From NCBI RefSeq assembly GCF_000143415.4, contig NW_003314281.1, forward strand, positions 360,833 to 424,832: a stretch of DNA of 64,000 nucleotides, read 5' to 3'. The translations under genes and the position numbers were made by a program. Below the pieces are notes generated by a model. The model was not told where the DNA came from. It saw nothing but the letters and a program-made list of their open reading frames with translations, and did no database searches. The first letter of the stretch is position 1, and each line of letters opens with the position of its first letter. Below are positions 9,621 through 64,000 of the stretch, one piece after another. Source of the DNA: Selaginella moellendorffii (taxonomy: Eukaryota; Plantae; Lycopodiophyta).

Positions 9621-9623
9621 ACT

Positions 9624-12990: not shown

Positions 12991-12994
12991 TGTC

Positions 12995-24860: not shown

Positions 24861-27800
24861 CTTTCTTTCGGGAGTATCATCAAGGGGTTCACTCGGCACC
24901 GGTTCATCCAGTGTTTACTTTCCAAGCTCGTTTTTATAACAAGAGGTCTCCTATTCTTCTCTCCGTGTTGGTTGATACAGGTTCGAGTTTATCTTCTATT
25001 GCTCGACCTGTTGCCACACGTTGTCGTCTACACTTGCGTCGTGCGGCGGATCCAGTTTTCATTCTTTATGGCAACGGCCGTACACATGCATGTGCACGAG
25101 ATGAGGCGGACCTGGTTGTGCGTGTGGGCGATCTCGAGCTTGAGTTGCAGTCGTTGCGGGTGGTGCCGAGTCAAGCTTTTGACCTCATTCTTGGTATGGA
25201 TTGGTTGCAGCACAATCATGCCAAGTGTGACTTTGAGGCTTTTCCCCCTTGTCTCATACTTCCTTATGTTTCATCCATTCCTCTCACTTCTGTACCTCTT
25301 CGTCCCTCTACTTCTACCTCTGCTTCCATTACTTTTGTTCCCCCATTATTTCCTCTTGTGTTTCCATCTTGTTCTGCTCTTCCCTTTTCCGATCCCTCCG
25401 ATGATCTTTGTGTTGCAGCTGTTGATCAGCTCATGAAGGAGTATTCTGATCTCTTTGAATTTGACCTATCGTCTGGGGCCAAGATTGCCACACGTCATCC
25501 CATTCCAACTGGGGATGCTCGTCCAATCAAGGTTCCTGTTCGTCGTCGGTCACCCAAGGAGATCAAGATTTTACGTGCAAACGTCAAGGAGATGTTGGAG
25601 AAGGGTGTTATTCGGAAGTCGCGGAGTCCTTGGGCATGTGAACCTCATCTTGTGACGAAGCCTGATGGGAGTATTCGTTTCTGCATCGACTATCGTCCGT
25701 TAAATGAAGTGACGATCCCGGACGTGTACCCTCTTCCTCACACTGCTGATCTCTTGGATCGTCTGGGGCGAAGTCGTTGGTTCACCAAGCTAGATCTTGC
25801 TTCTGGGTATTGGCAAGTACCGATGGCTGAAGACGATATTCCTAAGACTGCTTTTCGTACACCATTTGGTTTGTACGAGTTTTTGGTGATGCCGTTTGGT
25901 TTGAACAATGCTCCAGCAACTTTTCAGCGAATGATGGACGAGGTTCTTTGCGATATGCCAGAGGTGACGGCTGACTTCATTGATGATGTCTTGATCCACT
26001 CGGAGGGGACGTGGGAGGAGCATGTTCGTGATGTTTGTAAAGTGTTGGATCGGCTACGCGATGTTGGTTTAAAGCTGAAGCGGTCGAAGTGCGTGTTTGG
26101 GTCCAAGGACACAACTTATCTTGGGTACCGTATTTCTCGTGAGGGTTTGCAAGTTGATCCTGACAAACTTGTGGCTGTTCTAAAGTTCCCTACTCCGAAG
26201 TGTGTGAATGATGTGGAGCGCTTTTTGGGTAAGGTGCAGTATCTTGGTCGTTTTGTGGATCATCTTTCCGATCGCACTTTACCATTGCGAGCGTTGCTGA
26301 AGTCATTAACGTCATCTTTCATCTGGTCTCCCGATTGTGAGCGGGCGTTCGTGAATCTCAAAGAGCTATTGACGACTCCTCCGGTTTTGGCATATCCTGA
26401 CTACACTCGACCTTTTATTTTGCGCGTGGATGCTTCTGACATTGGTCTTGGAGGTGTGTTGATGTAAGAGAGCTCGAGTGTGCCTGGTCAGCGCCATCCC
26501 ATTGCATACATAAGCCGTACATTACAACCAGCGGAGATGAACTACTCCACGACGGAGAAGGAGTGTTTAGCAGCAGTCTGGGGTTTCGAGAAACTTCATG
26601 CCTATCTACATGGTTCTCGGACGTTACTTGAAGGTGACCATGCTGCTGTTACTTCATTATTGAAGCGGAAGAACCTGGTTGGTCGTACGGCTCGATGGGC
26701 TTTGAAGCTTCAGATATATGATTTCGATGTTGTTCATCGCCCAGGGAGTTCTATGGCTGATGCTGATGCCCTTTCTCGAGCTCCTCTTCCTTCTCCACTC
26801 ACTTCTCATGTTTCTGATAAACCTGTTGTTCCAGCATCTGTGGATTTTCTAGATGAGGATTCTGTGCCGTCGGCGGTTGCTGTCCTTGACGTTCAGTGTC
26901 CACAGGGCGTAGAGCAAGATCTACCTTTTCTGGATGAGGTTCGCGAGGCTCAAAAGATTGAGCCGTGGATTCGAAGGCTTCGAGATGGGTTTGAGAATCC
27001 TGCATCACTTGCTGATGACTTGCCTTTTCGGCATTTACATTCTCAATATCGCCTTGAAGATGGCCTTCTTTATTTTGTGGGGACGGATCCTGATGCTCAT
27101 TTACGGCTGGTGGTGCCTTCGGTGTTTATTCCGCGGTTTCTCCATGCCTACCATGATTCTCCTATTCTAGGTGGGCATATGGGACACCGTCGTGTCACCG
27201 AGAAGTTGCGCAGATCTTTCTATTGGCCAGAGATGCGACGTGATATTATCCGGTATGTGCGTAGCTGCATTTGGTGCCAAGCTCGTAATACTCCCCCTTG
27301 TGCTGCGGAAGGACGGTTGGAGTCAATTGCAGTTTCTCGTCCGTTTGAGTTGGTGGCGTTTGATCTTATGGGACCTTTTCTGCGATCGACTGCTGGCAAT
27401 GAGTATGTTATTATTGCTTCTGACTACTTGACTCGTTGGGTGGAAGTTGGTGCTCTTGCTAATGCCTCTGCAACTGCTGTTGGATACTTCCTCCTCAATC
27501 GAGTGGTGTTCCAGCATTCTTGTCCAAAACGGATTCTTTCGGATAATGGTCCTGCATTTATGGCTGAGGTATTTCATGTTTTGACATCTCGGTTGGGGAT
27601 ACGCCACACTTTTACGAGTGCTTATCATCCACAATCAGACGGTCTGGTGGAACGGCTCGTTCGGACATTCAAAGGGATGATTGCGAAGTATGTGAACTTT
27701 CAACATTCGGATTGGGATGGTTATTTGCCGTCTCTTCGGTATGCTTATGTCACAGGGGTGCAGAGTTCTGTTGGTGCTTCACCATATAAACTTCTATATG

Positions 27801-28285
27801 GTCATGATCCAATATTACCAACAGAGCTAGGTTTACCTTCGCGATTGCCACGAGCTCCTGATGCTAGGTCATGGGATCAATATTTGACAAGCATTCTTCC
27901 ACTTGTCCGAGCAGAGTCTGCTGAACACTTAGGCCGCGTACAAGTGGGACAATAACGGCGCTACAATTCCCATCATCGTCCACCAGCGGAGTACAAAGTG
28001 GATGATTTGGTGTTAGTCCGTTTTCCCCATCTTACGGTGCGTGGTTTATCTAAGGGGCTCCTTGCGCAGTGGAAAGGACCGTATCGGGTGTTGCGGCAAG
28101 TTGGACCACAAGTTTATGAGGTTCGGCATGACGTTCAGCAGGCTGATCCTCCGGAGATTGTGCATGTGCAACGGTTAAAACGCTTCATACAGAGGGATCA
28201 GGAGCAGTTAATACCGTCTACAGATCCACCGATGCCTCCTCCTGACGTTCCTCCAGATCCCGGCCCATCTACAAGAGAACCCTGA
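24797..28285 (+). pseudogene. Pol (PR-RT-RNaseH-INT) in the -1 frame relative to gag, interrupted by in-frame stops
   Basis: LVDTG, LILGMDWL, MPFGLNNAPATFQ, FIDDVL, VDAS, H-x6-H...C-x2-C, SDNG, AYHPQSDGLVER and WKGPY. In-frame stops at 24803, 26465 and 27953. Confidence 0.93.
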
Positions 28286-29607
28286 CGGCCTTCCATTATT
28301 CCGAGAGGAGGGGATGATGTGAGGGCCAAGTGTACGGCTACGATGCCGTATACTAATATTAGCGTAGTGGATTTTGGTAGCCGTCGGATTGGTTTCAATC
28401 TGGACCACTCGCTCCTGTATATAAGCTAGGGTTTTTGGGTTAATTGATATGCACATTTCTGTATTCCCTTTCTATATTCCATGCACTCACAATATAATAT
28501 TTACAGTTAAAAAATTAAATTTTTAATATTAAAATCACACTTGAGGTTATTTTTGTGAGTACTGACGTATTTCTGAGCTAGAAAAAGGTGAAAAAGGAAT
28601 AAACTCATTGAAAAAGGTTCCTAGGAAAATTCCGACTATTATAATTGCATAGTCATCTTAGAAATGGTATCTATTATAAAAGAACTAAATTAAAATTTTA
28701 GCATAAAATATTTTATTTTATTTTATTTTATATACTTTTAAGATTATTAATTTTCATTAAAATTTTATTTTAGTATTTTTTATATTGAAGAAGATACAAT
28801 AAATAATAATAAGAAATAGAAAACATATAAAATATTTATATATAAATTTAATTAAGATATCTTTGTATTTTGTTTTAATGCCACTCTCATATTTGGTAAA
28901 ATAATTATTATCTAATTATTTTATATAATACACATATATAAATTTTCTAAAAATATTATATTATATTGATATCAATGGTTATTTTTTTATATTTTATTAA
29001 ACTGCCAAAACAAAAAGATATAGTTGAAAGGATTACAAGTGTCTTGTGTATTGTAAGTATTAAACTATTAGTTATTACACAATATGATACATTACAAAGA
29101 ATTAAAAGCTTGCTATAATATTAAATTATTATTATTATTATTATTAATTAAAAGATTTTTATGTCTTAAATTTATATTATTTGATTTCTATCATGAAATA
29201 TTTATTATTTTCTTCTCTAGGAAAATAATAAGTTCTTAAATAATATATTCTTCCTCAATTATTTAAAATATATTTATTAGTGGCATATGTTAAGCAAAAC
29301 ATATTTAAAGTTTCCTTGGATGATTAAACTTTTGTCATCTAAACAAGATTTAAAAAATTTTACCATCTGGAATGCTTATATAAAATTTCTCCATATTTCT
29401 TTTAAAAATTAATTTAGTTTATTTTTTTGTTTTTAATTAAATAATTAATAATATTAATATTTTAAAAGAAAATTTATTATTATTTTAGCTAAGCTAATTT
29501 ATTAAGGCTAAATCCCTTAACTATGTCATTATAATAAAATAAATTCCAAAAATTATATTAACTAATTTATACTTCACATTACTTAAACCATTATTGTTTA
29601 ATATATT

Positions 29608-30516
29608 ATGAAGCTATTATTAATATGCTTATTTTTTATTAATATCTCTAATGCTGATTTACTCTATGGTCCATTTTATGAGAATGGAAGAGTTCTAAGT
29701 CAATCTCAAATGACAATCTTGTTTAGAGTACTAACAACTACATTTTTAAGATCTATATTACCAATTGATAGTCTGACAAATCCATATACAAGTTTTGATA
29801 GTATCATTCGTGTTCCTAATACTAATAAAAGAATTATTGTAACTCTTTATCTTCATAATGCTGGTATTAATTCTTTTAATCCTGCCCCTGGTGTTGTACA
29901 AATCTATAATAACGGAGCTTTTGACACAATTTTGCATGCTTTTAATTACATGCGAGATGATTTCATTAATAGAGGCTCTATGTATTCAATTTTTGGAATT
30001 GCATCTCCTTATGGAAGGTTTATTTTTCAATACCGGGTTTTAAGAATTCCAATTTCCCATCAGCCACAATTATCGGCAATTTCTATTTCACAACAAGACA
30101 TTTCTTCACCTTTTCAGTATACTCTGTTACCAGGGAATAAATATGATGTTTTTGCAAAGCTTGACAAGAACAGGAAATTAACAAACACTAAGCAGCAGTA
30201 TTTCTTTGTGATGCTAGACAACTGTAATCTTGTTTTAATTATCAAGAAGACAATAGGGTGGAGTTCAAATATAGTAGATATCAGCTTTGATTGTGAGGTG
30301 ATATTGCAACCAGACGGTAATATGGTAATTTACAGTGCATTCCATATAAAATCAGTTTGGTCTACAGTTACTTATTGCGAACCTCTTCCAAATTGTTATG
30401 CAAACTCAGAGTTATTACTCCAGGATGACTGTAATGTAGTTTTATACAGAACTGGTGACCCACAAGAACCTGTATGGGCGACACAAACAAATGGATGTTG
30501 GAGATTTACCTACTAA
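29608..30516 (+). CDS. Secreted protein with a C-terminal bulb-type (GNA) mannose-binding lectin domain
   Basis: Signal peptide, QxDxNxVxY motifs (QPDGNMVIY, QDDCNVVLY), MLDNCNLVL and PVWAT. Intronless, 302 aa. Confidence 0.85.
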   Translation: MKLLLICLFFINISNADLLYGPFYENGRVLSQSQMTILFRVLTTTFLRSILPIDSLTNPYTSFDSIIRVPNTNKRIIVTLYLHNAGINSFNPAPGVVQIYNNGAFDTILHAFNYMRDDFINRGSMYSIFGIASPYGRFIFQYRVLRIPISHQPQLSAISISQQDISSPFQYTLLPGNKYDVFAKLDKNRKLTNTKQQYFFVMLDNCNLVLIIKKTIGWSSNIVDISFDCEVILQPDGNMVIYSAFHIKSVWSTVTYCEPLPNCYANSELLLQDDCNVVLYRTGDPQEPVWATQTNGCWRFTY

Positions 30517-32749: not shown

Positions 32750-33560
32750 CTCTTTATATTTGCTCCAGGCTTCAATAAGAGCTGAATTATCACACGGCCT
32801 TGTTAGAGAGTGAGGATTCACCATTTGTTACAAATACCAAGTTAGCAGATTCATATAATGCATCTTTGCCTAAATTTTTTTCTCAAATTGCAAATCCACC
32901 ACTTCCAGAGAGGCCAAAAGATGTCCCTAGAGATCTTGAGGACCAACCAATAGCTACAAATAAACAAAGGATAATGCAGCAACTTGCACCACCTCTACCA
33001 TCCATGCCAATGATGCATGTGTTGTAGTGTGGCCTTGAGCTCCCCTTCTTCAAGCCAAGGATAGCATTTTAGTGGAGGATCACCTTGTAGCATTCTTTTC
33101 TTACTGTGTTAGCAACTAGATCATAGATGATATGACTAAGTACTAGGTGTTCACTCAATTGATGCATGGGCATGCATGGCAATAGGTACTTGTGCTAAAG
33201 GCTGCGGAAAAGTGGGACTTTGAGACTCTCCTCAAAATGTTTAGGAGCATGTTCTCTCAGGAGGCACAAGCTTGTCCAAGAATTGTTCTAGTTTCAACAA
33301 GGTGTGAATAAATCCATCTTCAACTATATAACGCAATTCAAGGCTTTTTGGAAGATCTACCGTGACAAGAGAGCAACACAAGAGGAGTCTATTAGAGTGT
33401 CAACATTTATACAAAGCCTTAAGCTCGGGCTCTAGAGGAAAGTTGTCAAGTGCTGGCACTAGTGATGCCACAACACTTATACATATGTTATAAAGCTTGA
33501 ATCGGAGATGTTCTGCAAGCTCTATGTCTCATTCATTGAGAAGCTTGTGAATGAGACATC
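32750..33560 (+). mobile_element. Degraded Ty3/gypsy gag remnant (target of the chromovirus insertion; continues at 40990)
   Basis: Gag-like relic peptides. Sequence continuity across the ACATC target-site duplication. Confidence 0.55.
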
Positions 33561-33649
33561 TGTAAGGAACCGACTCCCCGAGATGTCGTAGGCTAAAGGA
33601 TCCCCAAAAGCTGGACCAAAATGACAAAGAGTTCATCGGATGGGACCAA

Positions 33650-33872
33650 GTCGAGGATCGAGTCCGAGACCGACTCGGAGACCGAGTTCGAGTCCGACTT
33701 CGAGACCGAGTTCGAGACGGAGTCCGGATCCAAAATCGGGTCCGAGACCGAGTCCGAGGTCGAGTCCGAGGTCGGGTCCGAGGTCGGGTCCGAGATCGAG
33801 TCCGTAATCGAGTCCGAACCCGAATCCGAAGTCGGATCCGAAATCGGGTCCGAGATCGAGCCAGAGACTAAG
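33650..33872 (+). repeat. Degenerate CGAGTC/CGAGAC/CGGGTC hexamer array in the LTR (second copy at 39986-40173)
   Basis: Directly visible 6-bp periodicity. Confidence 0.9.
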
Positions 33873-34719
33873 TCCAAATACTAATACGGGTCAAGGGGTG
33901 AAAGCCCAAAGCGTGCGTCTCCCAGGGGGGGGGGGGGCTGCAGGGGGTTCCAAAAGTATAGTAGGGATAGTGAGGTCCAGGAACCAATTTAGAAGGGACT
34001 CTCCAGTTGGGCTTCCAAACCGACTTGAGGTTGGGACTGGGACCGAGGGGCCTTGGGTGGGAGTGAGCACGGACTTGGCTGGTGCCGGAGGGGCCATCCA
34101 AGGAAGTGCTCAAGAGCAGCTCCCACTCCCGAAAGGGAAACCGATTGCGGTGCTCCCGGCTCAGGTGGAGTGGTGCCCCACTTGAGTACCTTGTGGCTCA
34201 TTGGTCCTCGCCCTTCCGGGGGCTTGGGCCTTTCCTTCGGGATGGAAGTGGGGGGTAGAGGTACCCATACCGGGCCGTTAGGCCACGGTGTTTCACCCCG
34301 ACGTCCCGAAGCAAGTGCTGCACCCAAGGCTTGGGATTTAGAGGGTCCCATGATCAAGCCTTGTGGTACCTTGGGGTGTTAGGAATCTAGAGGCTTGGTG
34401 TGCTTGGCTGCTTGTGCCTGCGGGGAGTGTAGCCGAACCTTAAGTCCAGTCTAACCCGGGGAGGGGGATTGGGAGAGATTTGGGAATCCGTAGATGGATG
34501 GCTAACACTCCGTTGCTCGTGCAGTGAGTAGCTGAAACCAAGTAGGAGCTGGTACCATAGGCGAGAACCTTGGCGAGGGAACTTAGCAAAAGCCAAGGCA
34601 GTGTTGGACGGATAGGCGAGGTAAGCTGGCAAAGTGGAAAGGAAAAATTTGTGGCTTACAATTTGGTATCGGAGCCTTCTCCTCAGTTCTAGCGAAGGAT
34701 AGAGGCGGATTGCTGGGAG

Positions 34720-37700
34720 ATGGCAAGGGCAGGGCGTAAGCGAACCCAGGCGGAGACAGAACCTCCGCCAGAGCTGGAGGCTCCGGTCGAACAAGAGGCT
34801 ATGGATGAGGAATCCTTGCATGAGGAGGACTCTAGTGAGGAAACTTCCAAACAGGAGTCCGGTGGCGAGGTTCGGTCGTCCAAGGCTCGATTGGACGTTC
34901 TAGAAGGTCAATTGGCGCAGACCAATGCCCTGCTGGAGACTCTCGTACGCAAGCTAAAGCGTGACGAGAAACGGAAGAAAAGGCGAAAGACTGCGGATGC
35001 TGGCAGCGCAGAAGGTGCGGACCCTTCGGCAGGGACTGAGGCAAAACCAGACAAGGTCGAACAGACCGAAGTGGAATCAGTCCCTCAGGCAGTTCCCAAG
35101 TACAAACCAAAGCCCCCACCGGTGTTCAAGGGAGTGAACGACTATAAGGTTGTGGAGGATTGGTTTTACGATATGGAGGACTACTTCCGAGCGTTACGGT
35201 TACCGAGCTCGGAGAAGGTCCCATGTGCAAAACCATACTTGGCAGATAATGCCAAGTCTTGGTGGAGAACAACGGAGGCCAACGAAGGACCGGTGGCCAC
35301 CTGGGACATGATGAAGGCGAGGATCCGCGCGACATACGTTCCTCCGAATGCCACTCTGCATCTGAGAGATGAGCTGAGTAGGCTGAAGCAGACTGGAACC
35401 ATCCAGGAATATGTGAATGGGTTCATGGCAAAGAGGATACTTGTCACGGACATGGGGGATATGGATGCGTTCCATGCCTTTATATCAGGTTTGCAAACCT
35501 GGGCTCGCGGTGAGGTGATGCGCTGGAACCCGACCAACTACAAGGAAGCGTTGGATGCGGCCATCAAGGTGCATTTCAACGATAACCTGCGAAAGGGGAA
35601 CACGACGGGGTCGGGATCCACGTTTCACAAAGGGGCCAAACCGAGGGGAACATATAGCAGGGGGAAGTTCAAGAAGAGTTTCTCTAAGAATGAGTCCTCG
35701 GGATTCCGGAAAGGCAAATCCGGTGGCCAGCGAGCAAGTACGTGGGGGAGTCAAGCGAAAAGAGACAAACCCACGGATAAGAAGGTCAAGTCATATAGCA
35801 GCGTGGGAAACAACGTATGCTACAACTGCGGTGAAGCGGGACACTTTTCGAGGGAATGTCCCTACCCGAAGAAGGCCAGAGCGAATATGGCCATCAAGTC
35901 GGGTGAAGTCCAAAATGAGGTATGTGATCCAGTCCCTAACTCAAAGTTACTCATTACACGAGCAACTTTGGTAGAGAGTCGTTCGCGACATCTACTAGCC
36001 CTCCGAGGGAAGCTCGGAGGTAGCTTTGTTAAGATCCTTATTGACACGGGTGCTTCGGATAATTTTGTGGCTGCAGACATAGTCCGGCAAGCCGGACTAA
36101 CGGTGCAGCGGCTAGGCGAACCAAGGACTATAGAGTTTGTTCAAGGTAGCCAAAGCACCGATGAGGTACTTCGACAAGCGAGAGTCGAAGTGGGGACTTG
36201 GAAGGTGGACATGGATTTCACCGTGTTGGACATGGCGGGATTTGACGTGATCTTCGGAATGGACTGGTTCAATCGATTCGTGGTAGCCCTGCATGGTTAA
36301 GGTAGAAACCTTGTGGTACTGGCGAATGCCCAAGGAAGAAGATCTAGGGTGGAAGCCCAGGATCTAAAGGTAGGGCAAAGCAAGGCCAAAGAATCCTGCT
36401 TAAACCTGGTGTCCACGAGAGGACAACTCACTAAAGGAACTAAGGCAGCCTTTTTGTGCTTACTCTCGGTGAAGAGTGACAAAAAGACAAGAACGGAAGA
36501 AGTGCCTTTAGTGATCCAGCGAGTGTTGGACCAATTCCAGGATACCATGCCGGAGGAGCTACCGGCGGGGTTGCCCCCCGCACGACCGATAGAACATAAG
36601 ATTGAGCTGGTCGAGGGCGCTGAGGCAGTGGTTCGTCCACCCTATCGTTTGAACGAAAAGGAACTCAAGGAGCTCAAGTGCCAACTAGAGGAGTTGGTGG
36701 ACAAAGGGTATGTTAGGTTGAGCAAGTCGCCGTATGGGGCGCCGGTATTATTTGTGAAAAAGAAAGATGGATCTATGCGCATGTGCATAGATTACCGGTT
36801 GCTCAACAAGTATACCAAGAAGAACAAGTACCCTTTGCCAAGGATTGAGGACCTGTTCGATAGGTTGGGAAAGGCAAAATACTTCTCGAGGATTGACCTA
36901 AGGTCAGGATACTACCAGATCAGGGTAGCCGAGGAAGATGTCGAGAAGACAACCTGTCGAACAAGGTATGGGAGCTTTGAGTTTCTAGTGATGCCCTTTG
37001 GGCTGTGCAATGCGCCGGCAACGTTTTCGGCGTTGATGAACCACATCTTTGTACCCTATCTGGATCACTTCGTGGTCGTCTATATTGACGACATCCTGAT
37101 CTATAGCGAGACGCTAGAGGAGCATGCCGAACACTTGGCGAAGGTGTTTGAGAAACTAAGGGAACACAAACTGTATGCTAAAGAGAGCAAATGTGACTTT
37201 GCTCAACAAGAGGTAAAGTTTCTCGGGCATGTGGTGGGCCAGGACGGGCTCAAGGTGGACCCGGAGAAGGTCCAAGCGATCCAGGAATGGGAGCGACCAT
37301 CGAATGTACATGAGTTGAGGGCGTTCCTGGGGCTATGCAACTACTATCGAAAGTTTATCAGACACTATTCGAGAGTAGCCCTGCCCTTAACAGACCAAAC
37401 AGGAAAAGGGAAGATGGTATGGACAGCAGAATGCGAGGCGGCATTCGTCCACCTCAAAGGGAAGTTGAGGAAGGCTCCCGTATTGGCATTACCAGACTTT
37501 GGTAAGGACTTTGAGGTAGAAACGGATGCTTCGGACTTTGCGTTGGGCGCAGTTTTGAAGCAGGACAACCATCCGGTAGCGTTCTTCTCGAAGAAGCTGG
37601 ACAAGGCTCAACGGAAGTGGCCTGCCCACGAGAAGGAATTGTTTGCGGTGGTCAAGGCACTCAAGGAGTGGCGACACTACCTTGGGAGACACTTCAAGGT

Positions 37701-39491
37701 TTACACGGACAATGTGGCAACGAAACACTTCTTGTCACAGCCCGACCTAAGAGGGAAACAAGGTCGGTGGGCCAATGCCTTGGCTGAGTTTGATTGCGAG
37801 ATTCTGTACAAGCCTGGGAAGAGCAACATCGTGGCGGATGCGCTAAGTCGAAAAGCGAGCTTGAGGTTGGCAATATCCAGCGCAACAGCAACCTTCTGGG
37901 ACGATGTGCGGACAGCATATGAGAACGATGGTCTAGCACAAGAAGTGTTGCTGAGGAATCTAGAGGCGCGGGAAGCTCACCAGAGAGGTGAGCTGCCAAC
38001 GGAAGAGAAAACGGGCTATGCGGAACGCAACGGACTCATCTATTACAAGCAAACGAGGGTGTATGTTCCAGAAGGGGAACTAAGGAAGGTGGCCTTAGAA
38101 GAGTGTCATGACGGACCTCTTGCGGGACACGGCGGAGTGCCCAAGACAATGGGCTTACTCAAAAGGAAGTACCATTGGCCAGATATGGCTAAGGACGTCC
38201 AAGACTATGTAAAGACATGCCCAACATGTCAGCAGGTAAAAGCCGTGACTAAGGCTAGTGGGGGCTTGTTGCAAAGCATCCCCATTCCAGATCGCCCGTG
38301 GAAATGTCTTACGATGGACTTCATCACGGGACTCCCCCCAAGCGAGGGGTTTGATGCGATATTCGTGGTGGTGGACCGATTTTCGAAAATGGCACATTTC
38401 ATACCCACCACAACGGACGTGGATGCGGAAGGTGTGGCGAAGCTGTTCTTCGAACAAGTGGTTCGAGTGCGGGGAAGGCCGGAAGAGATTATCTCAGATC
38501 GAGATAAGATCTTCACCAGTAGGTTCTGGAGGACTCTCCTGGAACAGTATCGCACCAAGTTGAAATTCAGCACAGCCTATCACCCACAGACAGGTATGGG
38601 GTATTGAGTCAAGTTGTTGGCACTAACACTTCTTGACAGACGGACAAACGGAAAGGGTGAATAGGCAGCTGGAGGATTATTTGCGATGCTATGTCTCGGG
38701 AGACCAGACCGATTGGGTAAGTCATTTGGGACTTGCAGAAATGTGTTATAACAACTCACCACATTCGAGTATCGGGGTGAGTCCATGGGAAGTCATCAAT
38801 GGGCGAGCTATTGAAGGTCCTGTGGAACTCGGCGTGGCCGAGTATCATGGAGAGTTGCCCGCAGTGGAGGCATTCACGGCGGAAAGACTCAGCATTTGGA
38901 ATCTAGTGAGGGATTCCTTGGAACGGGCTCAACAAAGGCAAACCAAATACGCGAACCAGAAGCGTCGGGATGTAGAGTTCCAAGCTGGGGAGAAGGTGTG
39001 GCTGAACACCAAGAACCTCAGACTACCAAGTGGGATCAGCCGAAAGTTGACCCAAAGGTAAAGATGCATGTATTCCCGTAAATGAATTGATCTTGAGTTC
39101 CTTAAGCAGGTTCGCGGGGCCTTACGAGATTGAGGCACGAATCGGTAAAGTGGCTTACCGACTCCGACTTCCTCGAGAGATGGGGAAGATGCACCCAGTG
39201 TTCCACGTGAACTTACTCAAGCCGTACTTTGAGGATCCGCTTCGCAAGGACCAAGTGAGACCTTTACCTGAGGTTATCCAAGGGGAAGAGGAATACGAAG
39301 TCGAGGCCATCCTCAATGCGCGCAAGAGCAAGCGACAAGGACGCGAGGTGAGAGAGTTCCATGTGAAGTGGAAAGGATTTCCACACTGCGAAGCAACATG
39401 GGAACCGGAGGAGAACCTAGCGAACGCGCGAGATCTAGTGGAGGAATTTCTGCAAGGCAGAACTCTATGTACTTATGCAAAATTCAATTAA
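34720..39491 (+). CDS. Gag-Pol polyprotein (gag-PR-RT-RH-INT-chromodomain), join(34720..38593,38640..39057,39110..39491), one in-frame TAA at 36298
   Basis: [43 protein letters not shown] and HHCC. Splicing restores [14 protein letters not shown] and KLTQRFAGPY. Chromodomain YEVEAIL...VKWKGF...ATWEPEENL. Spliced length is 4674 nt, or 1558 codons. Confidence 0.9.
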
Positions 39492-39584
39492 AAATATATC
39501 AGTTTGCAAAGTTGAGCTAATGGCATATGTTGGGACCCGAAGGCGCGCCAAAGGTAAGCTAATTAGCATGGGTTGGATAGGTCG

Positions 39585-39880
39585 ACCAGGCGTAGGGCAC
39601 TACGCCCGACTCCCTGCGGGGATGTCGAATCCGTAGACGTATTCTACGGAGGTTGGGTTCGAGTCCCAACCCCCTAGTAAAGCAAGGCTGGGTTCAAGTC
39701 CCGACCCTATACTAGGGCGTGGTGAGGTGAGGAATATAGGGACACCTATATTCCGTTGTCATGGGCTCTTGGCCGGGGAGGCTAACTTAGGCACACCGCT
39801 AAGTGGGGGGATGCCCCCGGAGACATGGACAACAAGTCGTAGGATAAAACGAGACGTTCGATGTGGGCATCGAACTTCTT
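39585..39880 (+). other. Highly structured 3' UTR RNA element (hairpin array with two tRNA T-arm/B-box mimics)
   Basis: At least 7 consecutive stems. GGTTGGG-TTCGAGT-CCCAACC at 39651-39671 and GGCTGGG-TTCAAGT-CCCGACC at 39686-39706. Confidence 0.7.
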
Positions 39881-40989
39881 CTATGGGTGGTGGAGTTGTA
39901 AGGAACCGACTCCCCGAGATGTCGTAGGCTAAAGGATCCCCAAAAGCTGGACCAAAATGACAAAGAGTTCATCGGATGGGACCAAGTCGAGGATCGAGTC
40001 CGAGACCGACTCGGAGACCGAGTTCGAGTCCGACTTCGAGACCGAGTCCGAGACCGACTCGGGGGCCAAGTTCGAGTCCGAGTTCGAGACCGAGTTCGAG
40101 TCCGAGATCGGGTCCGAGATCGAGTCCGGAATCGAGTCCGAACCCGAATCCGAAGTCGGATCCGAAATCGGGTNNNNNNNNNNNNNNNNNNNNNNNNNNN
40201 NNNNNNNNNNNNNNNNNNNNNNNNNNNNNNNNNNNNNNNNNNNNNNNNNNNNNNNNNNNNNNNNNNNNNNNNNNNNNNNNNNNNNNAGGGATAGTGAGGT
40301 CCAGGAACCAGTTTAGAAGGGACTCTCCAGTTGGGCTTCCAAACCGACTTGAGGTTGGGACTGGGACCGAGGGGCCTTGGGTGGGAGTGAGCACGGACTT
40401 GGCTGGTGCCGGAGGGGCCATCCAAGGAAGTGCTCAAGAGCAGCTCCCACTCCCGAAAGGGAAACCGATTGCGGTGCTCCCGGCTCAGGTGGAGTGGTGC
40501 CCCACTTGAGTACCTTGTGGCTCATTGGTCCTCGCCCTTCCGGGGGCTTGGGCCTTTCCTTCGGGATGGAAGTGGGGGGTAGAGGTACCCATACCGGGCC
40601 GTTAGGCCACGGTGTTTCACCCCGACGTCCCGAAGCAAGTGCTGCACCCAAGGCTTGGGATTTAGAGGGTCCCATGATCAAGCCTTGTGGTACCTTGGGG
40701 TGTTAGGAATCTAGAGGCTTGGTGTGCTTGGCTGCTTGTGCCTGCGGGGAGTGTAGCCGAACCTTAAGTCCAGTCTAACCCGGGGAGGGGGATTGGGAGA
40801 GATTTGGGAATCCGTAGATGGATGGCTAACACTCCGTTGCTCGTGCAGTGAGTAGCTGAAACCAAGTAGGAGCTGGTACCATAGGCGAGAACCTTGGCGA
40901 GGGAACTTAGCAAAAGCCAAGGCAGTGTTGGACGGATAGGCGAGGTAAGCTGGCAAAGTGGAAAGGAAAAATTTGTGGCTTACAACATC

Positions 40990-44000: not shown

Positions 44001-44629
44001 ATGTTGGAGTGTTTCAAAATGTCATTCTAAAGGAAGAGGAGTGGTCTTTTTGCTTAGTGACCACGTGGTAAAGAAGTCCCAGAGGTTAGTAGGATTTAGT
44101 GGATGGGCCTTCAAGCCCTAGACTAGTGGTGGTGTTGATGAGCATTGCTATAGACAGAGAGAGATTTAGTGGGGATCAAACAAGTGATATTAAGGAATGG
44201 TGTTCCCCACTTCTAAGGGCATCATAAGGATGCTAATGGGTGGTCATAAGATGACCATTCATAGATGGATTGTTGTAATGCATATAATTATGGGATGAGA
44301 TTTAGATATATTATCAGCGTGAATCTTTACAATATTGGGGGATAAATGGGGATAAAATAGCTACTAAAGGCTTTTTTATTAAGCAATTGCCCCTTTTTTC
44401 ATTTGGCTTAAAAAAAGAGAAATAGGGTGCACTACAATGGCATAGTCTTTGGGAGATATAATTATGGTATAGGTCATCTTAAATTATTAATGAGACTAGT
44501 GTGAATGGACATGGCCTTACCATAATAGGCTAGTATGTCGATGGTACATTTGGGTGTTTATAGTGGGATTGGATACGTGGAGCACTTAGACCAAATGGTT
44601 CCATTGCACTCTTCCCCCTATTATCTCAT

Positions 44630-45468
44630 GTTGGTCCTTTAATATTCGCTAAATGATAGTTTATTGTGTTTGCCAAGACATTTTCACTATCATACGTTAT
44701 GTGTTAGTCTTGTTTAGTATTAACTATTTATGAAAAGTGACTATGTTTGCTAGTTAGACATATTTACAAAATATAAAGATTATCATAAACACAATGGTGT
44801 TATTCCCACATTTAGATATGCAATCTAGGGCCATTCTATATTTAGTAAATTCTCGTGATTATCCCAGAAATTAACTCTTGGGACTGGGATGAAAGCCCAA
44901 AACTTATGATCCACAAGAGGGGGGGGTGCAGCTATAGGCAACCCCCTATAGCCAGTTTAAAATAGTAGATAAGGATAGTAAATAAATAAGGCATGGTCGA
45001 TCAATTTGAGGTATAATTTAACTTTTACTTATGTATCTATCTTTGTTCTATATCTGGCTTGGGTCTAAACCCAATTCCATACCATACTAGATTATAAAGT
45101 ATTTATATCCTCATGTTAAACCATTAGTATGCTAAAATAATGTTAAATTCTCATTTGGCTCTATTTTGTGTGTTAGTCTTGACATTGGGATATTGGATGC
45201 TCTAAGAATGTTCTAATGCCACTTCATGCTCTTATCCCTTCGCTCATTAGGATATACATTTGGGAGTTGTCTTATGCTTTAATTCTTTTGCTCTTTGGTT
45301 GCATATTTGAGAGTTTAGCTTTGTTGTTTTGTATAGTGGCCCAAGGCCATAAAACTTAAGTTTCACTCCATTGCCCTTGGCTTATGTGACCAAGGGTTAT
45401 GATTCCACTCTATGGTTTTTCTATAATAAATCACTATAGGGTAAATGGTGAAAATTATATATGCTACA
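44630..45468 (+). repeat. Family A LTR copy (old, AT-drifted)
   Basis: Colinear with 9905-10764. Contains gggatgaaagcccaaa plus a G-run and ends gctaca. Confidence 0.7.
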
Positions 45469-46003
45469 AATATAAGAAAATCCTAAAGGTTAATGGGATT
45501 TAGTGGTTTTAGGCTTTGACCCAATGGCAGTATTGGCAAACATTGTCATAGATAGAATGGGATTTGGTAGGGACTAAAGGAAGGATATTAGGCAATGGTG
45601 TTCTCTATATTTTAGAGCATCCTAAAAATGCTAAAGTGTAATTATAAGGTAATCATTTATGGATGGATGGCCTAGTCTTTAGAAGACGAGATTATGGTAC
45701 AAATGGTTTCAAACTATTAATAAAAAATATCCTATAAATAAACCAAAAAAAAAACAATTCAAGAGATGGTTTATAAAGGTTCAAATATAAAGGAAAAAAG
45801 CCCATGAACAAGAGTGTTTTTTCAATCAAATAAGGGTTTTTGGATATTTGAGGTTAAATAACCTTAGGTTTGAATAATATTAAGCTAGGTGACTTCCTAG
45901 GAAGTCTAAATTCAAGAGCTTACACGTGCGAATAAATATAGTGTTAATGTAATAAGCTGATATGTGAAGGATACCCTTGGGCATCTATAGTGGAACTAAA
46001 CAT

Positions 46004-48805: not shown

Positions 48806-50485
48806 ATGAAGGCGCATTTTCCAGAGTGTGCGCTCTCTGTGGACTCGCTTCTTCCTTTCCAGGATATGGAGGCGCAGATCATGTAAGTCCTGAGCGAGCG
48901 CTTGATCGATCGATCGCCAGAAAGAAATTTCTTCGTTTGATCTTGTCTTGCCGCCCAGAAATGTGTGCCGGGCCTTGATCCCGGAGCTTCAAGACGCCGA
49001 TGATTCAGATTTTGACGTTTGCCGGATCAATGGAGGGATCACAAACATTAGTGAGTTGGAGAATTGCAAGTTCCATCTCTCTTTTTTTTTTTGCTTTTAT
49101 GCAACGGGCGTGTTCTTTCGTTTGCAGTGGCTAAAGTTTCCAAGAAGGATCAATCTGTTGTTGTCCGCGTGTTTGGTCCTGCCACCGAGGGTGTGATCGA
49201 TCGGGATCGAGAAATCCAGGTTAGCATTGGGAGTAATCTTTGAGTAATTCCTTGATCTCAACTTCTTTTTCTTCGCAGGCAACCTGTCATTTTTCGCGAG
49301 CTGGGTTTTGTCCAGAGCTCAAAGGCGTCTTTAAAAACGGGATCATTCAAACGTTTGTCACGGCAAGGACGCTCACACCTGAAGGTTTTTTTTCTTCGTA
49401 AAGCTACTCTTTATTCTTTTGTTCATTTGAATTAGTTTGCCTAAGCTGGCAGATTTTCTGGACGATGCAGTCGTTGCAAAAGTTGCAAAAGAACTTCGAC
49501 GCCTTCATCAGCAAGAAGTTCCGGGCGAGAAGGAACCCATGGTCTGGACCGAGATTAACAGATACTTTGAGCTCGGTATGGCAACTTCTTGGGTTTCTTT
49601 CATATTTTTTTCGGTTGTTTGTGTAACAATGCTAGTGCTGCTGCTCCAGCGTCTGCTGTTACCAAGTTTGAGAATCCAGAAAATCAAAGGAAACTGGAGG
49701 CGGTGTCATTTGACGAGCTAAGGCAAGAGATCAATACATTGAAGGTTTGCGTTCCCAAAGCGATAGTAGTCAAGCCTACATTGGTTGATCTTTGCAGGAA
49801 ATCGGCGCTCGCTTGAAGGGACCTGTCGTCTACGCACACAACGATTTGCTTCCCGGCAATGTCATGGTTGATGCGCAAGGTGATAAATGTGTTTGAAGTG
49901 GAGGTTTTCAATATTTTTATACAGGGAAGTACTATTTTATCGACTTCGAGTACAGTGGATATAACTATCGTGGATTTGACATTGGAACTCACTTCAACGA
50001 GTATGCCGGACTCGATTGCGACTTTTGCGCGTAATCCACAGGCATTTTGGATCTTATTTGCGTTCTTATCCAAGCAATGCTCTTGTTTTGCAGCTATCCA
50101 AGCAAAGACCGGCAGCTAAACTTCTTGAGGCACTATTTGCGACCAGATGATCCTGAGAAGGTATTTTCTTATGATCTCGTCAATGTGGAAACGCTCGTGA
50201 ATTAACAGGCGACACATGAAGAACTGGAAGAGCTGTTTGTTGAGGCAAATTTCTACGCGCTTCCCGCTCATATTACATGGTCGGCTTGGGCAATTGTCCA
50301 GGTAAAAAGCTTTGGATATTTTTTTTATAGCGCTTTGAAATAACCCTGGCTTGCAGGCAACATCTTCAGCAGCAATCGACTTTGACTACATGTCATACTT
50401 TTTCAAGCGGATGAAGATGTATAGAGAGCAAAAGGCGAAGTTTTTGCCGGTGGTGAGAGGCTTCCTCGCTGGTAAAAGCAAGTAG
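48806..50485 (+). CDS. Ethanolamine/choline kinase (CEK4/EMB1187-like), multi-exon
   Basis: INGGITN, Brenner motif HNDLLPGNVM, YFIDFEYSGYNYRGFDIGTHFNEYAG, and IDFDYMSYFFKR. Confidence 0.92.
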
Positions 50486-51065
50486 CATATGGTTTGGATC
50501 TTGATCTCGTGCATGGGAACATAAGCTCTCGTTTTTAAGCTTGGCTGACAGCTACTTCTGGAATGAGTGGAAACTTATCCCTTCGTACACCTCTGTGCAA
50601 ATTGATCAGCACAAATTTAGAGACAACTCGGAAACATGCTGCGACATTATTCACCACGAACTCGTACGTCGATGGCTTTCAAGTTGACACCGCAACACAC
50701 ATTCTGCTGTGTTGTCCCACATGAAAGAATTGACCATCTTGACATTCTTGGACCAAAATCGAAGCATCACGATCAGGAAAGCTACAATCTCACCACTTCC
50801 ACCATCAAATGCCTCTTAGAATGAGAAATCAAAAGCACAGCACCCAAAAGGAACAGTAAAAGCAACGACAAATTCTCATAAACCGTATAGCTTTTGACCA
50901 ATGCGTTCTTGTCTAAATTCGTTTTGTTATTTACAATTTGGATTTTTACTCTCAATTATAGAATTTCAATCTTCAAAGTGAATGACAGGATCTTCATCCC
51001 ATCAAACCACATTTGTTGTTGGTTTGGTTGTGTTTCTCCTGGTAAACGAAAATGGCAGCGCTGGC

Positions 51066-52678
51066 TCACCTTTGCATGCACAGCGCTGCCTTCCAGGTGG
51101 ACAGGGGCGGCGTGGAGACGCACTGCCACGTGTAGAACATGTTCTTGACACGCTGGCCGATTACCTCGCACGCTGGCACCGCTGCCTCAATCTCGCGAAT
51201 CTCCTGCCGCGTCAGCTCCATTCCCACCGCCACCATGTTCTCCTCCAGGTGCCCAAACCTGGTGGTCCCAGGGATGGGGACCACGTCATCGCCCTGACTG
51301 TGCAGCCACGCCAGCGCCAGCTGGCCCGGCGCACACTTTATTCTCCGCGAGATGCTGTGGACTCGATCGAACAGCACCTTGTTTCGTGCCAAGTTCTCGG
51401 GAAAGAATCTGGGGATGGCAACCTGTTTGATCAAAGAGAAAGAATCACTCCACGGTTCTTCCACTCCAGGTACAGAGCTTGACTGCAAACAAACCTTGCG
51501 GAAATCGTTGGGGACGAGATCCTCCGTCACTGCTTTCCCCGAGAAGAATCCCCGCCCCAGCGGGCCATAAGCGACGATCCCGATCCCGAGCTCTCTGAAA
51601 GAGACAAAGTTTGTGAGTGAGAAAGAGAGAGAGAGAGATGAGTGAGACAATCGCCGACAGTATATCTATGGCGAGCAATGACACAGACGTGAGGTCTGTG
51701 TGCCATCGCCGTGTGTGTTTCTACGGTGAGATCAGAGAGTTCTTCAAGCCAAATACCTGCAAGTCGGGATGATCTCGTCCTCCACGTCTCGTACCCAAAG
51801 AGACCACTCGATCTGGACGGCAGTGATGGGATGGACTGCGTGCGCTCGCCGGATTGTCGATGCCGAAGCTTCTGAGAGGCCTATGTACTTCACCTTGCCT
51901 TCCTCTACGAGTTTTTTCATCTCTCCCACCTGAGAGGCAAGAATTCGACGTGAAGAAAATCATAGTAGACTATAGGAAGACCGAAGCAAATCATAGCTCA
52001 TAGACTATAGCAAGAAATATAAAGGTGAAAGTTCTACGAGGAACAAAGTTAAAACTAAGGACAAACGACCAAAGGACTGACAAACAAGGACGAAATGGAG
52101 AGAGCAAAGAAAGAAAAGGTTGTGAGAAAGAGAACTTACCGTGACCTCGATCGGGACGTTTGGATCCACCCGGTACTGGTAGTAGAGATCAATGTAGTCT
52201 ACATTGAGCCTCCGCAAGCTCGCCTCACAGGCAGCTCTCACATACTTTGGATCGCCGCGGATCGTCGCGGTCTTGCTCTTGTCCAGGCCAGCCACCGCGA
52301 ATTTCGTGGCGATCTGGACCCTGTCGCGGATCCCTCGGATTGCCTGGAAGAGAATCGATGAGTTCTTGGGGGAAACATGCGAGAGCGGGGTGTGTTCTTG
52401 GAAGGAAAACCTCGAAATTTCCAGAGGCATGCGAGAAATCTCACCTTGCCGACGAGGATTTCGTTGGCGAAGGGGCCGTAGCAGTCGGCGGTGTCGAGGA
52501 AGGTGATCCCCGACTCCACGGCACGGCGGATGAGCTCGATGGATCGCTCCTCGGGCGGGCTGGCGTGGTAAGCGCCGGACAAGCTCGCGCATCCCAGGCC
52601 CTGCTTGGACACCTCGAATCCCTGCGACCCCAGCTTCACTCTAGGGACATGGGGCAAGTTTAAATCCCAGCATCCCAT
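51066..52678 (-). CDS. Aldo-keto reductase (AKR13/IN2-2-like), multi-exon
   Basis: [59 protein letters not shown] and VPIPGTT. Confidence 0.93.
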
Positions 52679-53419
52679 GGCTAGAGCAGCCCCAAAACCC
52701 TGATCGAATCCGCGAATTCACCACCAGTAGGCCGAGCAGATCCACATGAGATTGGCGAGCAAGGAGCGAATTGACGCGGGGCGGGGCATTGGACTGGAGC
52801 GAGCGAGCGAGCGGCGGAGTGATCCAAGAAGAATTCCTTTGTGGCGCTTTCCCGACCTAGGTAGAGCAAATGCTGGACAAGGGCGAGAATGCCGCAGCGG
52901 TGGATCGCTTCGTGGATCACGCTAGAAACTTCGATTCAAAGCGCGAGGATGCAAATCAAACTCCTACTGCTCCCACGCCACCAGATTTGGGGGAAGAGAG
53001 AGAAATAGAAAAGAGAAGAGAAGAGGAGAGATTTAGATTCCAGCCAGCATTATTGACAAAAATTCCCTCTCTTTGTTGTTCGTTGGCACACCTCCTCCTC
53101 TTTCCCTTGTAAACAATTTTATCACTACTGGCACAGAGGAGGAGCTAGAATTTGGGGAATCTTCCCGGGCGAGCTTGGACAGAGGCATCACGCTATAAAC
53201 ACTGGGAAATTCCTAGTCTTTTTACTCCAATTTTCCGGAGAGTTACTTTTGTTTTTGCTTCTTCTAAGAACAGCACCACCAACCAGTTTAGCCAATGGAG
53301 AACTCGCAAAAAGCTTCACCCAAAGTCAAACGAATCTTTGCTGGTCTAGTTTGGTTTCACACGGGGCAAAGAAAAAAAAAAAATTAAAGGTCCACCAAGG
53401 TGGTGGAGTGAATCCAGAT

Positions 53420-54846: not shown

Positions 54847-56527
<1,681 letters not shown>

Positions 56528-61061: not shown

Positions 61062-64000
61062 ATGGCTTTGCACGCCAAATTCGTCTTGGCGTGCAAGGAT
61101 CCCTACGTCAGATTGACTGGATTCCCGGTAAGTTCTTCATTCCTTTTCTTATCTTCTCGAGACAAGTATTCGTTTCTCTTGTATAGGTGCTAGCGCATTG
61201 TAAAGAAATCTGCGCTGCAAGGCCTGGAGCTGGAGTGGCATCCACGCACCACGAAAAAATTGTTAGCAGCTTCTTTGGTTCTCTGCTGCGGCAAACGAGA
61301 AGTTTTCGACGTAGACCGCGACAGGCAATTGTTATTCATGGAGCCATGGACGTAAGTCTGGAGACAATCAACGACCTTGGATTGGACACGCTTACTTTCC
61401 TCGTCGCCACAGTGCTCGTCGTGCCTTCATTCAAAGCCTTCAAAGCAAGTCCTGTGAGTATTATTTTTCTCAACATGAAGCTCGAAAACTTTGTCTTTCT
61501 TTTGCGTAGATTTTGGGATTTCTCTTGTCTGGAGTAGTGATGAACCAGCTCGGACTTATCAGAAACGTGACGGACATCAAAGCTCTATCTGAACTAGGTA
61601 TACTTTTCCTTGTAAGTATTTTCGCTGTGAGCTTTTGTGATGTTTTCCTGATCGAATTTCTTTTCATTTCCAACAGCTCTTTGAAATGGGATTAGAATTG
61701 TCTCTCGCTCGTTTAAAAGCATTGGCCAAGTATGCATTTGGCATGGGATTTGCACAGGTGCTTGATCGTTTTCTAGCCTTTCGTTTGATATTTTTTGGTT
61801 TCCTATGCCAGGTTTTACTATCGACAGTAGCGTTCGCAGCATTTGAGCTTCCACCAAATGGAGCACTGGGAACTAGACTTCTCGAATTTCTTTTCCATTC
61901 TCGACCGGATCTTGTAAGTTTTGTGGGCAAACGGCCATCTTTTAACTGTCCTTTTAACAGGTAAATATTAGAACTGTAGACGAAGCTGTAGTTATTGGAG
62001 CGGGTTTATCATTGTCTTCTTCCGCATTTGTCTTGCAGGTTTGTTGTCCAAAATGCTTCTTTGTTAATTTGTTAAGTGCTGTATTTTTGCAGCTTCTTTC
62101 AGAGAAGGGAGAACTTCCAACAAGATTTGGCTCTGCCACCCTTGGAATTCTTCTCTTTCAAGTACAAAATGCGCAACAAACTTCTTTTACTAACATGGTA
62201 TTCCTAGGACATTGCTGTCGTACCTTTGCTGGTCATTCTACCAATTCTAGAAACCGGGGTATGTTATTCTGATATCTCATCTGCTCGTATCTTCATATCG
62301 ATATTACAGAATTTTTCACAAGAGAGTCTCTGGCCTGTAATGGCGGCTGAAAGTCTAAAAGCCTTGGGTGGCTTGGGAGCACTGTCCCTTGGTGGACAAT
62401 TACTTCTTCGTCGTATTTTTGAGGTTGGCCACCCCTCAAATCGCTTTATTTAATCGATTCAAATTGATACAGGTCGTAGCAGATGCAAGGAGCTCCGAAG
62501 CTTTTGTAGCTCTTTGTTTGCTTACAGTCACTGGAACGTCTCTGCTAACGCAAAAACTTGGGTTCAGCGACACGGTATGTGTATTCATACTCAGGAGATG
62601 CTTTTGTGCTGAATATTTCGTTGTGAAAGCTTGGAGCATTTCTCGCTGGTGCACTTCTAGCGGAGACAAATTATCGCACACAAGTCGAAGCAGACATTCG
62701 TCCTTTCAGAGGATTATTGCTTGGACTGTTTTTTGTAACGACGGGCACATCGATCGATCTCCAGGTGAGGACAGAGCATTGTTTTTGACCGATTTTGATA
62801 CTGTTCTATCCATTTTGCAGCTTTTAATTCGAGAGTGGCCAAATGTTTTAGCACTCCTAGGTGGCTTAATCGCGATAAAAACACTAATCACTACCGCCAT
62901 TGGCAAGAAAGTTGGCTTGTCACTGCCAGAAAGTGTTCGTACTGGTCTGCTTCTCTCACAAGGTGGAGAATTTGCCTTCGTGGTTTTCGCCCTTGCAAAC
63001 AGGTACTCACAAAAGCGAGCTTTAGTGCCACTTTCTTATTACTTTTGTTGCTGTACAGGCTTGGAGTATTGCCCTTGGAGCTCAACCGTTTACTCATTAT
63101 CGTGGTTGTATTGTCGATGGCTCTCACTCCTTTCTTGAACGAGTTTGGTCGCAAGCTTGCTAACATTATTGAGTTGAAAATTCAACAAGATTCCACGGAG
63201 GTATACTGGCTTTTCACGTTGAAGCTGATCCAGGTAGTCTTTACAGATTAAAAAGGTGGAAATTCCTAAAGTTGCTGAGCCGGTTGTTATTGTTGGATTT
63301 GGTCAGACTGGCCAGGTTTCTGATCTACAGCATAGCTTAGTTTGCTTACTTTGTTTTTCCAGGTTCTAGCCAACTTCCTGTCTACACCTCTAGCAAATGG
63401 TCCTGGCGGTGATGTTGAAGGCTGGCCATATCTAGCATTTGATCTTGATCCTAACCGCGTGAAGGCAAGCTGAAGTTAGAACTACAAGAAGCTTTTTGTT
63501 TCTCATCTCTTCTATCAGGTGTCTAGAACGCTGGGCTTTCCTGTCCTGTATGGAGATGGATCACGGCCATTGGTGTTACAAACTGCTGGGGTGGTGAAAC
63601 CGAAGGCACTCATGGTGATGTACACTGGCAGAGGAAGTGCTGTGCGAGCAGTGGAGAGGCTGCGACTAGCATTTCCAGAGGTATTTTCATGTTTTTTTTT
63701 TTTTTGCACTAACCACCTGCGTGGACAGACGCCTATATTTGCTAGAGCACAAGACTTGGGACACTTGCTCGAGCTTAAACAAGCCGGCGCTACTGATGCT
63801 ATCTTGGAAAACGCTGAGGTATGCAAGCCTTTGCTTTTCTCAGTGTTAAAAAAGCTTTAAAAACCATCAGACGAGCTTGGAGCTTGGGTCTGTGCTACTC
63901 CGGGGCCTCGGAGTCATGCCGGACGACGTCAACTTCTTGAGACGCATAATGCGCGAGTCTCTGGATGTCCAAGCGCAGGAAGCACTGGAGAAGAAAGCTG
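61062..64000 (+). CDS. KEA3: Thylakoid K+ efflux antiporter 3 (CPA2 plus KTN domain), runs off the window end
   Basis: INDLGLDTLTFL, LFEMGLELSLARLKALAK, LSLSSSAFVLQ, GILLFQDIAVV, LLSQGGEFAFV, GFGQTGQ and YGDGSRP. Confidence 0.93.

Follow-up and report, generated by a model that had tools for sequence, protein, structure and literature searches.

An LTR retrotransposon of Selaginella moellendorffii raises the question how introns can be kept inside an essential enzyme of an element that passes through RNA in each generation. An intron put into a retrotransposon normally disappears when the element is copied, which is the principle of the classic retrotransposition assay, and plant LTR elements are generally without introns, with Ogre and EVADE as notable exceptions (PMC12786077, in its available part). 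The element is located in a stretch of 64,000 nucleotides (here called the window), and two small introns in its integrase, together with transposition in their presence, had been predicted from the letters of this DNA (the original prediction). Here, the element was compared with contigs of likely RNA and of DNA from its family, with related proteins and with the literature. The reading favoured, with a probability of roughly 80%, is that of a chromovirus with three GT-AG introns (A, B and C), which likely-RNA contigs skip and DNA contigs retain, with host splicing likely sorting the RNAs into different jobs.

Materials and methods

Four likely-RNA runs (X15, X17, X18 and X19) from four studies, taken from 24 listed runs with six of this guessed kind, were used for the analysis of spliced forms; their RNA nature was guessed, as it is not recorded, and the data consist of assembled contigs only. 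On the DNA side, X1 and X3 stem from one sample and X4 and X7, whose kind is unrecorded, from a second. A likeness threshold of 82% was applied, and 49,684, 20,800, 184 and 341 contigs were compared in the four DNA-side runs. RNA-side and DNA-side runs come from different samples, and summed contig depth was not taken as copy number or expression level. Differences were counted as 66 distinct places among the best-supported rows (40 per comparison), with none listed in exon 3. Of the 12 indel rows, 8 were used; the other four, all from X3 and with letters of the GATC type, were set aside since ligation likely produced them.

Architecture of the element and its family

The element (33561-40984, forward strand, as are all of its features; 7,424 bp in total) is flanked on both sides by the target-site duplication (TSD) ACATC of 5 bp (33556-33560 and 40985-40989) and is bounded by LTRs of the form TGT...ACA. 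The 5′ LTR (33561-34660, 1100 bp) holds a 12-mer tandem array and a tract of 13 G, and the 3′ LTR (39897-40984, 1088 bp) contains a gap of 113 N at 40174-40286. With the 12-mer array and the N gap left out, a single one of the 849 compared positions differs between the two LTRs. The 12-mer arrays themselves (33657-33870 and 39990-40173) differ between these otherwise near-identical LTRs (91% over 289 nt), and the diverged array yields long low-complexity ORFs in several frames. A 13-nt primer-binding site (PBS) is located at 34664-34676, which we take to be the complement of initiator tRNA-Met, and a purine-rich tract just 5′ of the 3′ LTR (39884-39896) is the likely polypurine tract (PPT).

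The internal region starts with a gag exon of 400 codons (34720-35919, Pfam Retrotrans_gag and zf-CCHC), followed by intron C (35920-36076) and the protease region. The part of pol up to intron A (36301-38593) comprises reverse transcriptase (RT), RNase H, the integrase zinc finger and the integrase core with both catalytic Asp residues. Between introns A and B lies integrase exon 2 (38640-39057, 418 nt) with the catalytic Glu, the end of the core and the start of the SH3-like domain; exon 3 (39110-39491) encodes, according to Pfam and the reading frame, the remainder of SH3_Tf2-1 and the chromodomain and ends with a stop at 39489-39491. The Pfam order is thus gag, zinc knuckle, protease, RT, RNase H, integrase zinc finger and core, introns A and B, SH3_Tf2-1 and chromodomain. 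TG...CA LTRs, a 5-bp TSD, the order gag-PR-RT-RH-IN and a C-terminal chromodomain place the element among the Ty3/gypsy chromoviruses, and the closest solved structure is Ty3 Gag-Pol (7Q5B). Identity with the GingerRoot/Ginger DNA transposons (PMC6839031, partial text) was rejected, since LTRs, PBS and RT are present.

The element is likely a copy of SM1-Galahad of S. moellendorffii, matched on the published description and not on an exemplar sequence. According to the available text of PMC3350952, which gives a consensus for a family with hundreds of copies, SM1-Galahad is about 7.5 kb long, with LTRs of more than 1 kb that carry an 11-25 bp poly-G and with a 13-bp tRNA-Met PBS; the 7,424 bp, the LTR lengths, the 13 G and the 13-nt PBS of the studied copy agree. 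The same source gives three ORFs, of which ORF1 (3885 bp, 1295 aa) ends in the integrase core and is without chromodomain, ORF2 has 316 bp, and ORF3 (309 bp) contains a group I chromodomain. In the studied copy, the ORF up to the stop in intron A measures 3885 nt (counted through the private stop described below) and the last ORF 309 nt, whereas the middle ORF has 318 nt from its first ATG versus the published 316, which is not a multiple of three. As the published consensus of many copies shows the ORFs broken in the same way, the breaks concern the family as a whole. The placement of SM1-Galahad in the Galadriel clade is taken from PMC3350952, and a few Selaginella chromoviruses are left unclassified in the available part of PMC6317226. 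The main text of PMC3350952, as far as available, reports the split ORFs and yields no match for 'intron' or 'splic'. Its authors did not find any SM1-Galahad copy that is putatively intact; they describe the sister family SM2-Galahad as intact and intronless, with one ORF of 1577 aa.

An in-frame stop interrupts the protease region of the studied copy at 36298-36300, where about 99% of the family depth in all four DNA-side runs reads non-stop letters. This stop is private to the studied copy, which is therefore unable to make Pol itself. The copy is thus dead for Pol and likely moved with proteins of sister copies, unless the stop post-dates the insertion or is an assembly error. A further intron hiding the stop was rejected, as no likely-RNA joint falls there and the stop is private to this copy.

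Introns A and B in the integrase

Intron A (38594-38639, 46 nt, phase 1) reads CAG|GTATGG...CACTAAC...GACAG and contains a stop at 38605-38607; intron B (39058-39109, 52 nt, phase 2) reads AAG|GTAAAG...AAGCAG, with AG|GT at both ends and a stop at 39059-39061 if retained. Both are 3n+1 long, and direct repeats of 5 nt (GACAG) at A and 4 nt at B are located at the junctions. The CACTAAC in A is a candidate branch-point motif by its letters. The T content of A and B is 33%, compared with 19-21% in the exons. GT...AG ends, exon context, a T-rich body and host-like size give A, B and C the appearance of U2-type introns, C being longer and coding. Coordinates, lengths, GT..AG ends, 3n+1 lengths and stops of A and B were all as originally predicted.

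Upon removal of the introns, the exon ends read HPQT|D|GQTER at A and KLTQ|R|FAGPY at B, exon 2 is free of stops and the joined frame continues to the stop at 39489-39491. Among 206 relatives compared, exactly one residue stands between the exon ends in 190 of the 194 that can be aligned at site A and in 57 of the 66 that can be aligned at site B, and the spacer in HPQT-x-GQTER is one residue in all 161 motif matches. In the alignment with Ty3 Gag-Pol (7Q5B), the last residue matched by exon 1 is 1267 and the first matched by exon 2 is 1269. The exact removal of A and B thus restores the conserved motifs and one frame to the chromodomain, as had been claimed. With the triad residues assigned as is established for DDE integrases (D,D-35-E), the second Asp and the Glu are exactly 35 residues apart once A is removed; A therefore cuts the D-35-E, and both Asp residues are parted from the Glu. 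Intron B is placed inside the SH3-like/GPY region, ahead of the chromodomain.

A neighbouring transporter gene contains six introns of 46-56 nt, the removal of which gives a stop-free frame of 263 codons versus 9-18 stops in the unspliced sequence. A and B are therefore host-sized, in line with the original prediction. Tubulin introns in the window, read by position, are longer (60, 81 and 82 nt).

Intron C and the predicted Gag-only product

Intron C (157 nt, phase 0, GAG|GTATGT...GCTGCAG), delimited by likely-RNA joints, a DNA contig and the frame, follows codon 400 and covers the protease active site, the DTG being inside it when retained. Unlike the stop-bearing A and B, C is coding when retained. 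Splicing C out shifts the frame to a Thr followed by a stop, which predicts a Gag-only protein of 401 aa. A protease intron, a frameshift and a stop just past the junction are the features of the shGAG type of splicing. In EVADE, this splicing is coupled to premature polyadenylation; the C-spliced contig of X15 continues for about 760 nt past the junction, contigs being unable to show RNA ends. The original account with two introns thus stands for A and B, and it had overlooked the third intron as well as the stop at 36298.

Splicing in likely-RNA contigs

Three joints were found in the 5,226 nt compared in the likely-RNA contigs, all of them with GT..AG ends and coinciding with C, A and B. 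Exact skipping was seen in two of the four runs for each intron, namely in X15 and X19 for A, in X15 and X17 for B and in X15 and X18 for C, so that the spliced sequence expected at the A and B junctions is present. The exon side of the joint is short in two cases (25 nt in X19 and 28 nt in X18). In X15 record 3, a single contig of 2,500 nt, A and B are both skipped; since it differs from the studied copy at 52 of 2,500 letters (~2%), splicing is shown for the family and not for the studied locus. No joint between PR and RT, the position of the Ogre intron, is among the three joints found in these contigs.

Retained forms were observed as well. In X17 record 5 (38560-39359), which is of high depth, foreign sequence forms a long 5′ part joined to a 5′-truncated family piece in which A is kept and B is skipped; it is probably a host transcript reading into a family fragment. 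X19 holds both the spliced and the retained form of A, and in X18 record 13, A is retained with an additional letter. The mixed forms of X17 and X19 are the partial pattern expected of splicing. The C-spliced record of X15 ends at 36839, its A/B-spliced record starts at 36841 and the interior of C is uncovered, which means that the RNA of X15 may be the fully spliced, Gag-only form. The claim that integrase and chromodomain come only from spliced mRNA is supported by the skipping of A and B in X15 record 3; no contig of the four likely-RNA runs combines retained C with spliced A and B.

Selection on the exon behind intron A

All 10 differences listed for exon 2 affect the third base of a codon in the post-splicing frame (P about 2e-5); upstream, 46 of the 53 listed differences do so. 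By contrast with this constraint, length varies in the introns: five of the eight indel rows (two of five distinct places) fall inside the 98 nt of A and B. Protein-level constraint in exon 2 together with variation in intron length is expected only if the introns are removed before translation.

These data bear directly on the explanation that competes best with the favoured one, namely that the introns are spliced incidentally, in Gag-only or read-through transcripts, and that the family, never making a full integrase of its own, is moved by an intronless relative such as SM2-Galahad. Several observations agree with it: the missing combination of retained C with spliced A and B in the likely-RNA runs, the private stop of the studied copy, the long foreign 5′ part of the B-spliced X17 contig, and the published contrast between SM1-Galahad, for which the available text of PMC3350952 reports no intact copy, and its intact, related and intronless sister. 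Incidental splicing would, however, leave the third-position pattern in exon 2 and the clustering of indels in the introns unaccounted for, as both indicate purifying selection on a frame that exists only through splicing, and the catalytic Glu, the SH3-like domain and the chromodomain are intact. We therefore consider it improbable, and splicing that serves the element itself remains the preferred reading.

Retention of the introns in family DNA

Contigs of the DNA-side runs bridge intron A (X4 record 23, X7 record 30 and X3 records 13 and 14, the last 83% alike), intron B (X4 record 24, X7 record 32 and X1 record 7, the last 85% alike) and intron C (X7 record 25), gaining or losing no more than 1 nt overall. 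A, B and C are thus each removed precisely in likely-RNA contigs and present in DNA contigs. Due to the fact that contigs of only 83-85% likeness keep A and B, these introns are old within the family. Loose contig ends include diverged intron variants that still start with AG|GT at A or have CTAAT in B. No DNA joint at A, B or C is among the 15 listed of at least 180 joints, and the listed X1 joints have depths of 140-305 versus summed depths of about 110,000-624,000 inside A and B. One or a few intronless copies are possible, given that 15 of at least 180 joints are listed and that contigs drop rare variants.

Such copies are central to a second alternative. Under it, the genome holds intronless masters that are the genuinely autonomous elements, and the joined contigs derive from transcription of these masters; copies with introns would then form a defective, if successful, subfamily. 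The limited number of listed joints, the loss of rare variants from contigs, the difference between RNA and DNA samples and the 2% difference of the X15 contig from the studied copy would all be compatible with it. Against it, a joined form in DNA would have to rank lower than the joints with a single deletion, whose depth is 140-305, and the mixed patterns of X17 (A kept, B skipped) and X19 (both forms of A) would not be expected from intronless transcripts. Moreover, intron C, which any autonomous copy needs, is skipped too, showing active splicing of family RNAs, and copies of 83-85% likeness keep A and B. Masters of this kind are thus somewhat less probable still than incidental splicing, and retention of the introns by the replicating family is preferred. 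Copy-specific insertions or assembly errors that mimic introns, or inserts bypassed by ribosomal recoding, are very improbable: the short direct repeat at each insert junction, of 5 nt for A and 4 nt for B, is common in DNA insertions, yet the inserts are family-wide in two DNA samples and in the ORF layout of the published consensus and are removed exactly in likely-RNA contigs. Changes of 1 nt in the length of A are also tolerated, unlike what fixed recoding would permit.

The possibility that most family copies lack the inserts is contradicted by their family-wide presence in the DNA contigs seen, together with the same ORF breaks in the published consensus. Transposition with introns had originally been deduced from near-identical LTRs and an intact TSD. 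Both observations are correct, with one LTR difference in 849 positions and ACATC on either side; taken alone, they are weak as proof, since the studied copy, with its private stop, is not able to produce its own Pol. It is the family-wide DNA data, and not LTRs and TSD, that carry this inference and support it.

Surroundings and origin of the introns

A second young Ty3/gypsy element is located in the window at 23482-28491 (+), with 174-bp LTRs that are 99.4% identical; its gag and pol are in different frames and seem to overlap, with a pol stop at 26465-26467 and a frame break near 27955. A very AT-rich island at 28500-30516 contains an intronless frame of 304 codons, unlike the surrounding host genes; at the end of the frame is a B-lectin match that is weak (E 8e-4) and falls short of the curated cut-off. 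Regions 3700-13920 and 44070-45670 hold several retroelement remnants (64-81% alike) that are nested, inverted and diverged, some of them weakly similar to the poly-G part of the Galahad LTR. A sequence of about 1.1 kb at 17176-18312 recurs in inverted orientation, 85% alike, at 48896-50212. Ordinary host genes are found at 51050-52690 (-), 54952-56527 (+), 62300-63400 (+) and 21472-22644 (+). They are an aldo-keto reductase-like gene and alpha-tubulin, these two by eye, a cation/proton exchanger (introns of 46-56 nt) and a slowpoke-like RCK channel gene.

An insert at site A is absent in the compared relatives and in the second gypsy element of the window. This suggests gain, and the second element further indicates that such introns are not general to gypsy elements of the host. 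No match of more than 15 nt to A or B, and hence no donor, was found elsewhere in the window. The junction repeats of 5 and 4 nt would fit proto-splice-site or DNA-level insertion, and reverse splicing was also considered. Protein searches gave no close relative (best match 57% over a short stretch), and among viral contigs no relatives were found. Metagenomes contained four distant loci (L001-L004), of which L002-L004 are intron-free at site A, with exons 2-3 alignable only in part, and L001 has no exon-2 match.

Proposed mechanism

In the proposed mechanism, each RNA form would have its own task. From C-spliced RNA, only Gag would be translated (400 codons, then Thr and a stop), which would supply an excess of Gag. 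RNA with C retained and A and B spliced would encode the only complete Gag-Pol with active integrase and chromodomain, predicted at 1557 aa and thus close to the 1577 aa of intronless SM2-Galahad. Unspliced RNA could yield no more than Gag-PR-RT-RH plus an integrase without the Glu, and RNA with A spliced and B retained would stop at 39059-39061 and lack the chromodomain. Unspliced RNA is likely the packaged and reverse-transcribed form, which would explain the persistence of the introns. Spliced RNAs would keep the PBS, PPT and LTR ends; as they hold all replication signals and are yet absent from DNA, a sorting is implied. By analogy with the translated pool of BARE1, spliced RNAs are likely kept out of particles. 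That unspliced RNA serves as the genome had also been claimed originally; DNA copies that keep all introns support this, the identity of the packaged RNA itself being inferred.

A further-reaching proposal, for and against which we see about equal weight, is that de novo host-type introns in the integrase were made obligatory, that genome RNA and integrase mRNA are fully separate, the packaged form being unable to encode a functional integrase and Pol being supplied in trans, that a C/A/B splicing code sets the levels of Gag, RT and integrase, and that retention of B can drop the chromodomain with its chromatin targeting. If true, the family would be a natural system for the choice of an RNA between packaging and splicing, and it would show how new introns arise and stay in a genome that passes through RNA in each generation. 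Three introns are kept across hundreds of copies, and A and B, inside an essential enzyme, seem to be without a Gag:Pol benefit. Spliced RNA would be a ready-made intronless element, and the persistence of the introns in spite of this points to near-complete exclusion of spliced RNA from replication. Intron retention makes the rule of RNA sorting testable. Furthermore, the introns explain the odd three-ORF structure published for SM1-Galahad, and ORF-based screens will call such intron-bearing families broken.

Comparison with known systems

Foamy viruses express Pol from a spliced mRNA, i.e. from an RNA other than the genome. To our knowledge, neither these viruses nor Penelope-like elements have introns inside an LTR-type DDE integrase. 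Both belong to other classes than the studied element. Penelope-like elements carry spliceosomal introns (PMC4209133, partial text), and sunflower elements produce short multi-intron isoforms encoding truncated proteins (PMC7730604, partial text). Integrase introns are not mentioned in the available parts of PMC2864245, PMC7197481, PMC5718144 and PMC6839031. No report of introns inside the integrase of an LTR element or of Galahad splicing was found in a search of the openly accessible literature.

For intron C and the proposed sorting, the closest parallels are found in Ty1/copia elements. BARE1 of barley has a 104-nt intron at the gag/protease border with a CAG/GTAT donor, the splicing of which leads via a frameshift to a stop and to Gag only, as predicted for C; its packaged pool is unspliced and separate from the one that is translated, which makes BARE1 the nearest model for sorting (PMC3735527, partial text). 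In EVADE and Arabidopsis Ty1/copia shGAG, splicing likewise removes the protease, and a frameshift gives Gag only; no such conserved splicing was seen for Arabidopsis Ty3/gypsy, according to the available part of PMC5580714. Intron C provides a Ty3/gypsy example of predicted Gag-only splicing. In contrast to the studied family, whose unspliced RNA cannot encode a complete integrase, the unspliced RNA of BARE1 and EVADE encodes complete Pol, as far as the available parts of these sources describe it. The studied element itself is not Ty1/copia, its integrase being downstream of RT-RH by Pfam.

For introns A and B, the parallel is Ogre, a Ty3/gypsy element of the Tat lineage in pea and Medicago, the genomic copies of which carry an intron that is spliced from a subset of transcripts to give the whole polyprotein (PMC6317226 and PMC3735527, partial texts). 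The Ogre intron is located between GAG-PROT and RT, and the Tat lineage is non-chromoviral (available part of PMC6317226). The studied family is unlike Ogre in having two host-sized introns inside integrase domains, one of them within D-35-E, a separate Gag intron and a chromodomain. The principle on which the original prediction relied, that a retroelement may retain introns which must be spliced, was thus already known from Ogre, BARE1 and EVADE, and a must-be-spliced pol intron from Ogre itself, whereas the position of the introns inside the integrase and their number, three, are new with respect to the literature searched. The studied family works like Ogre and is not an Ogre.
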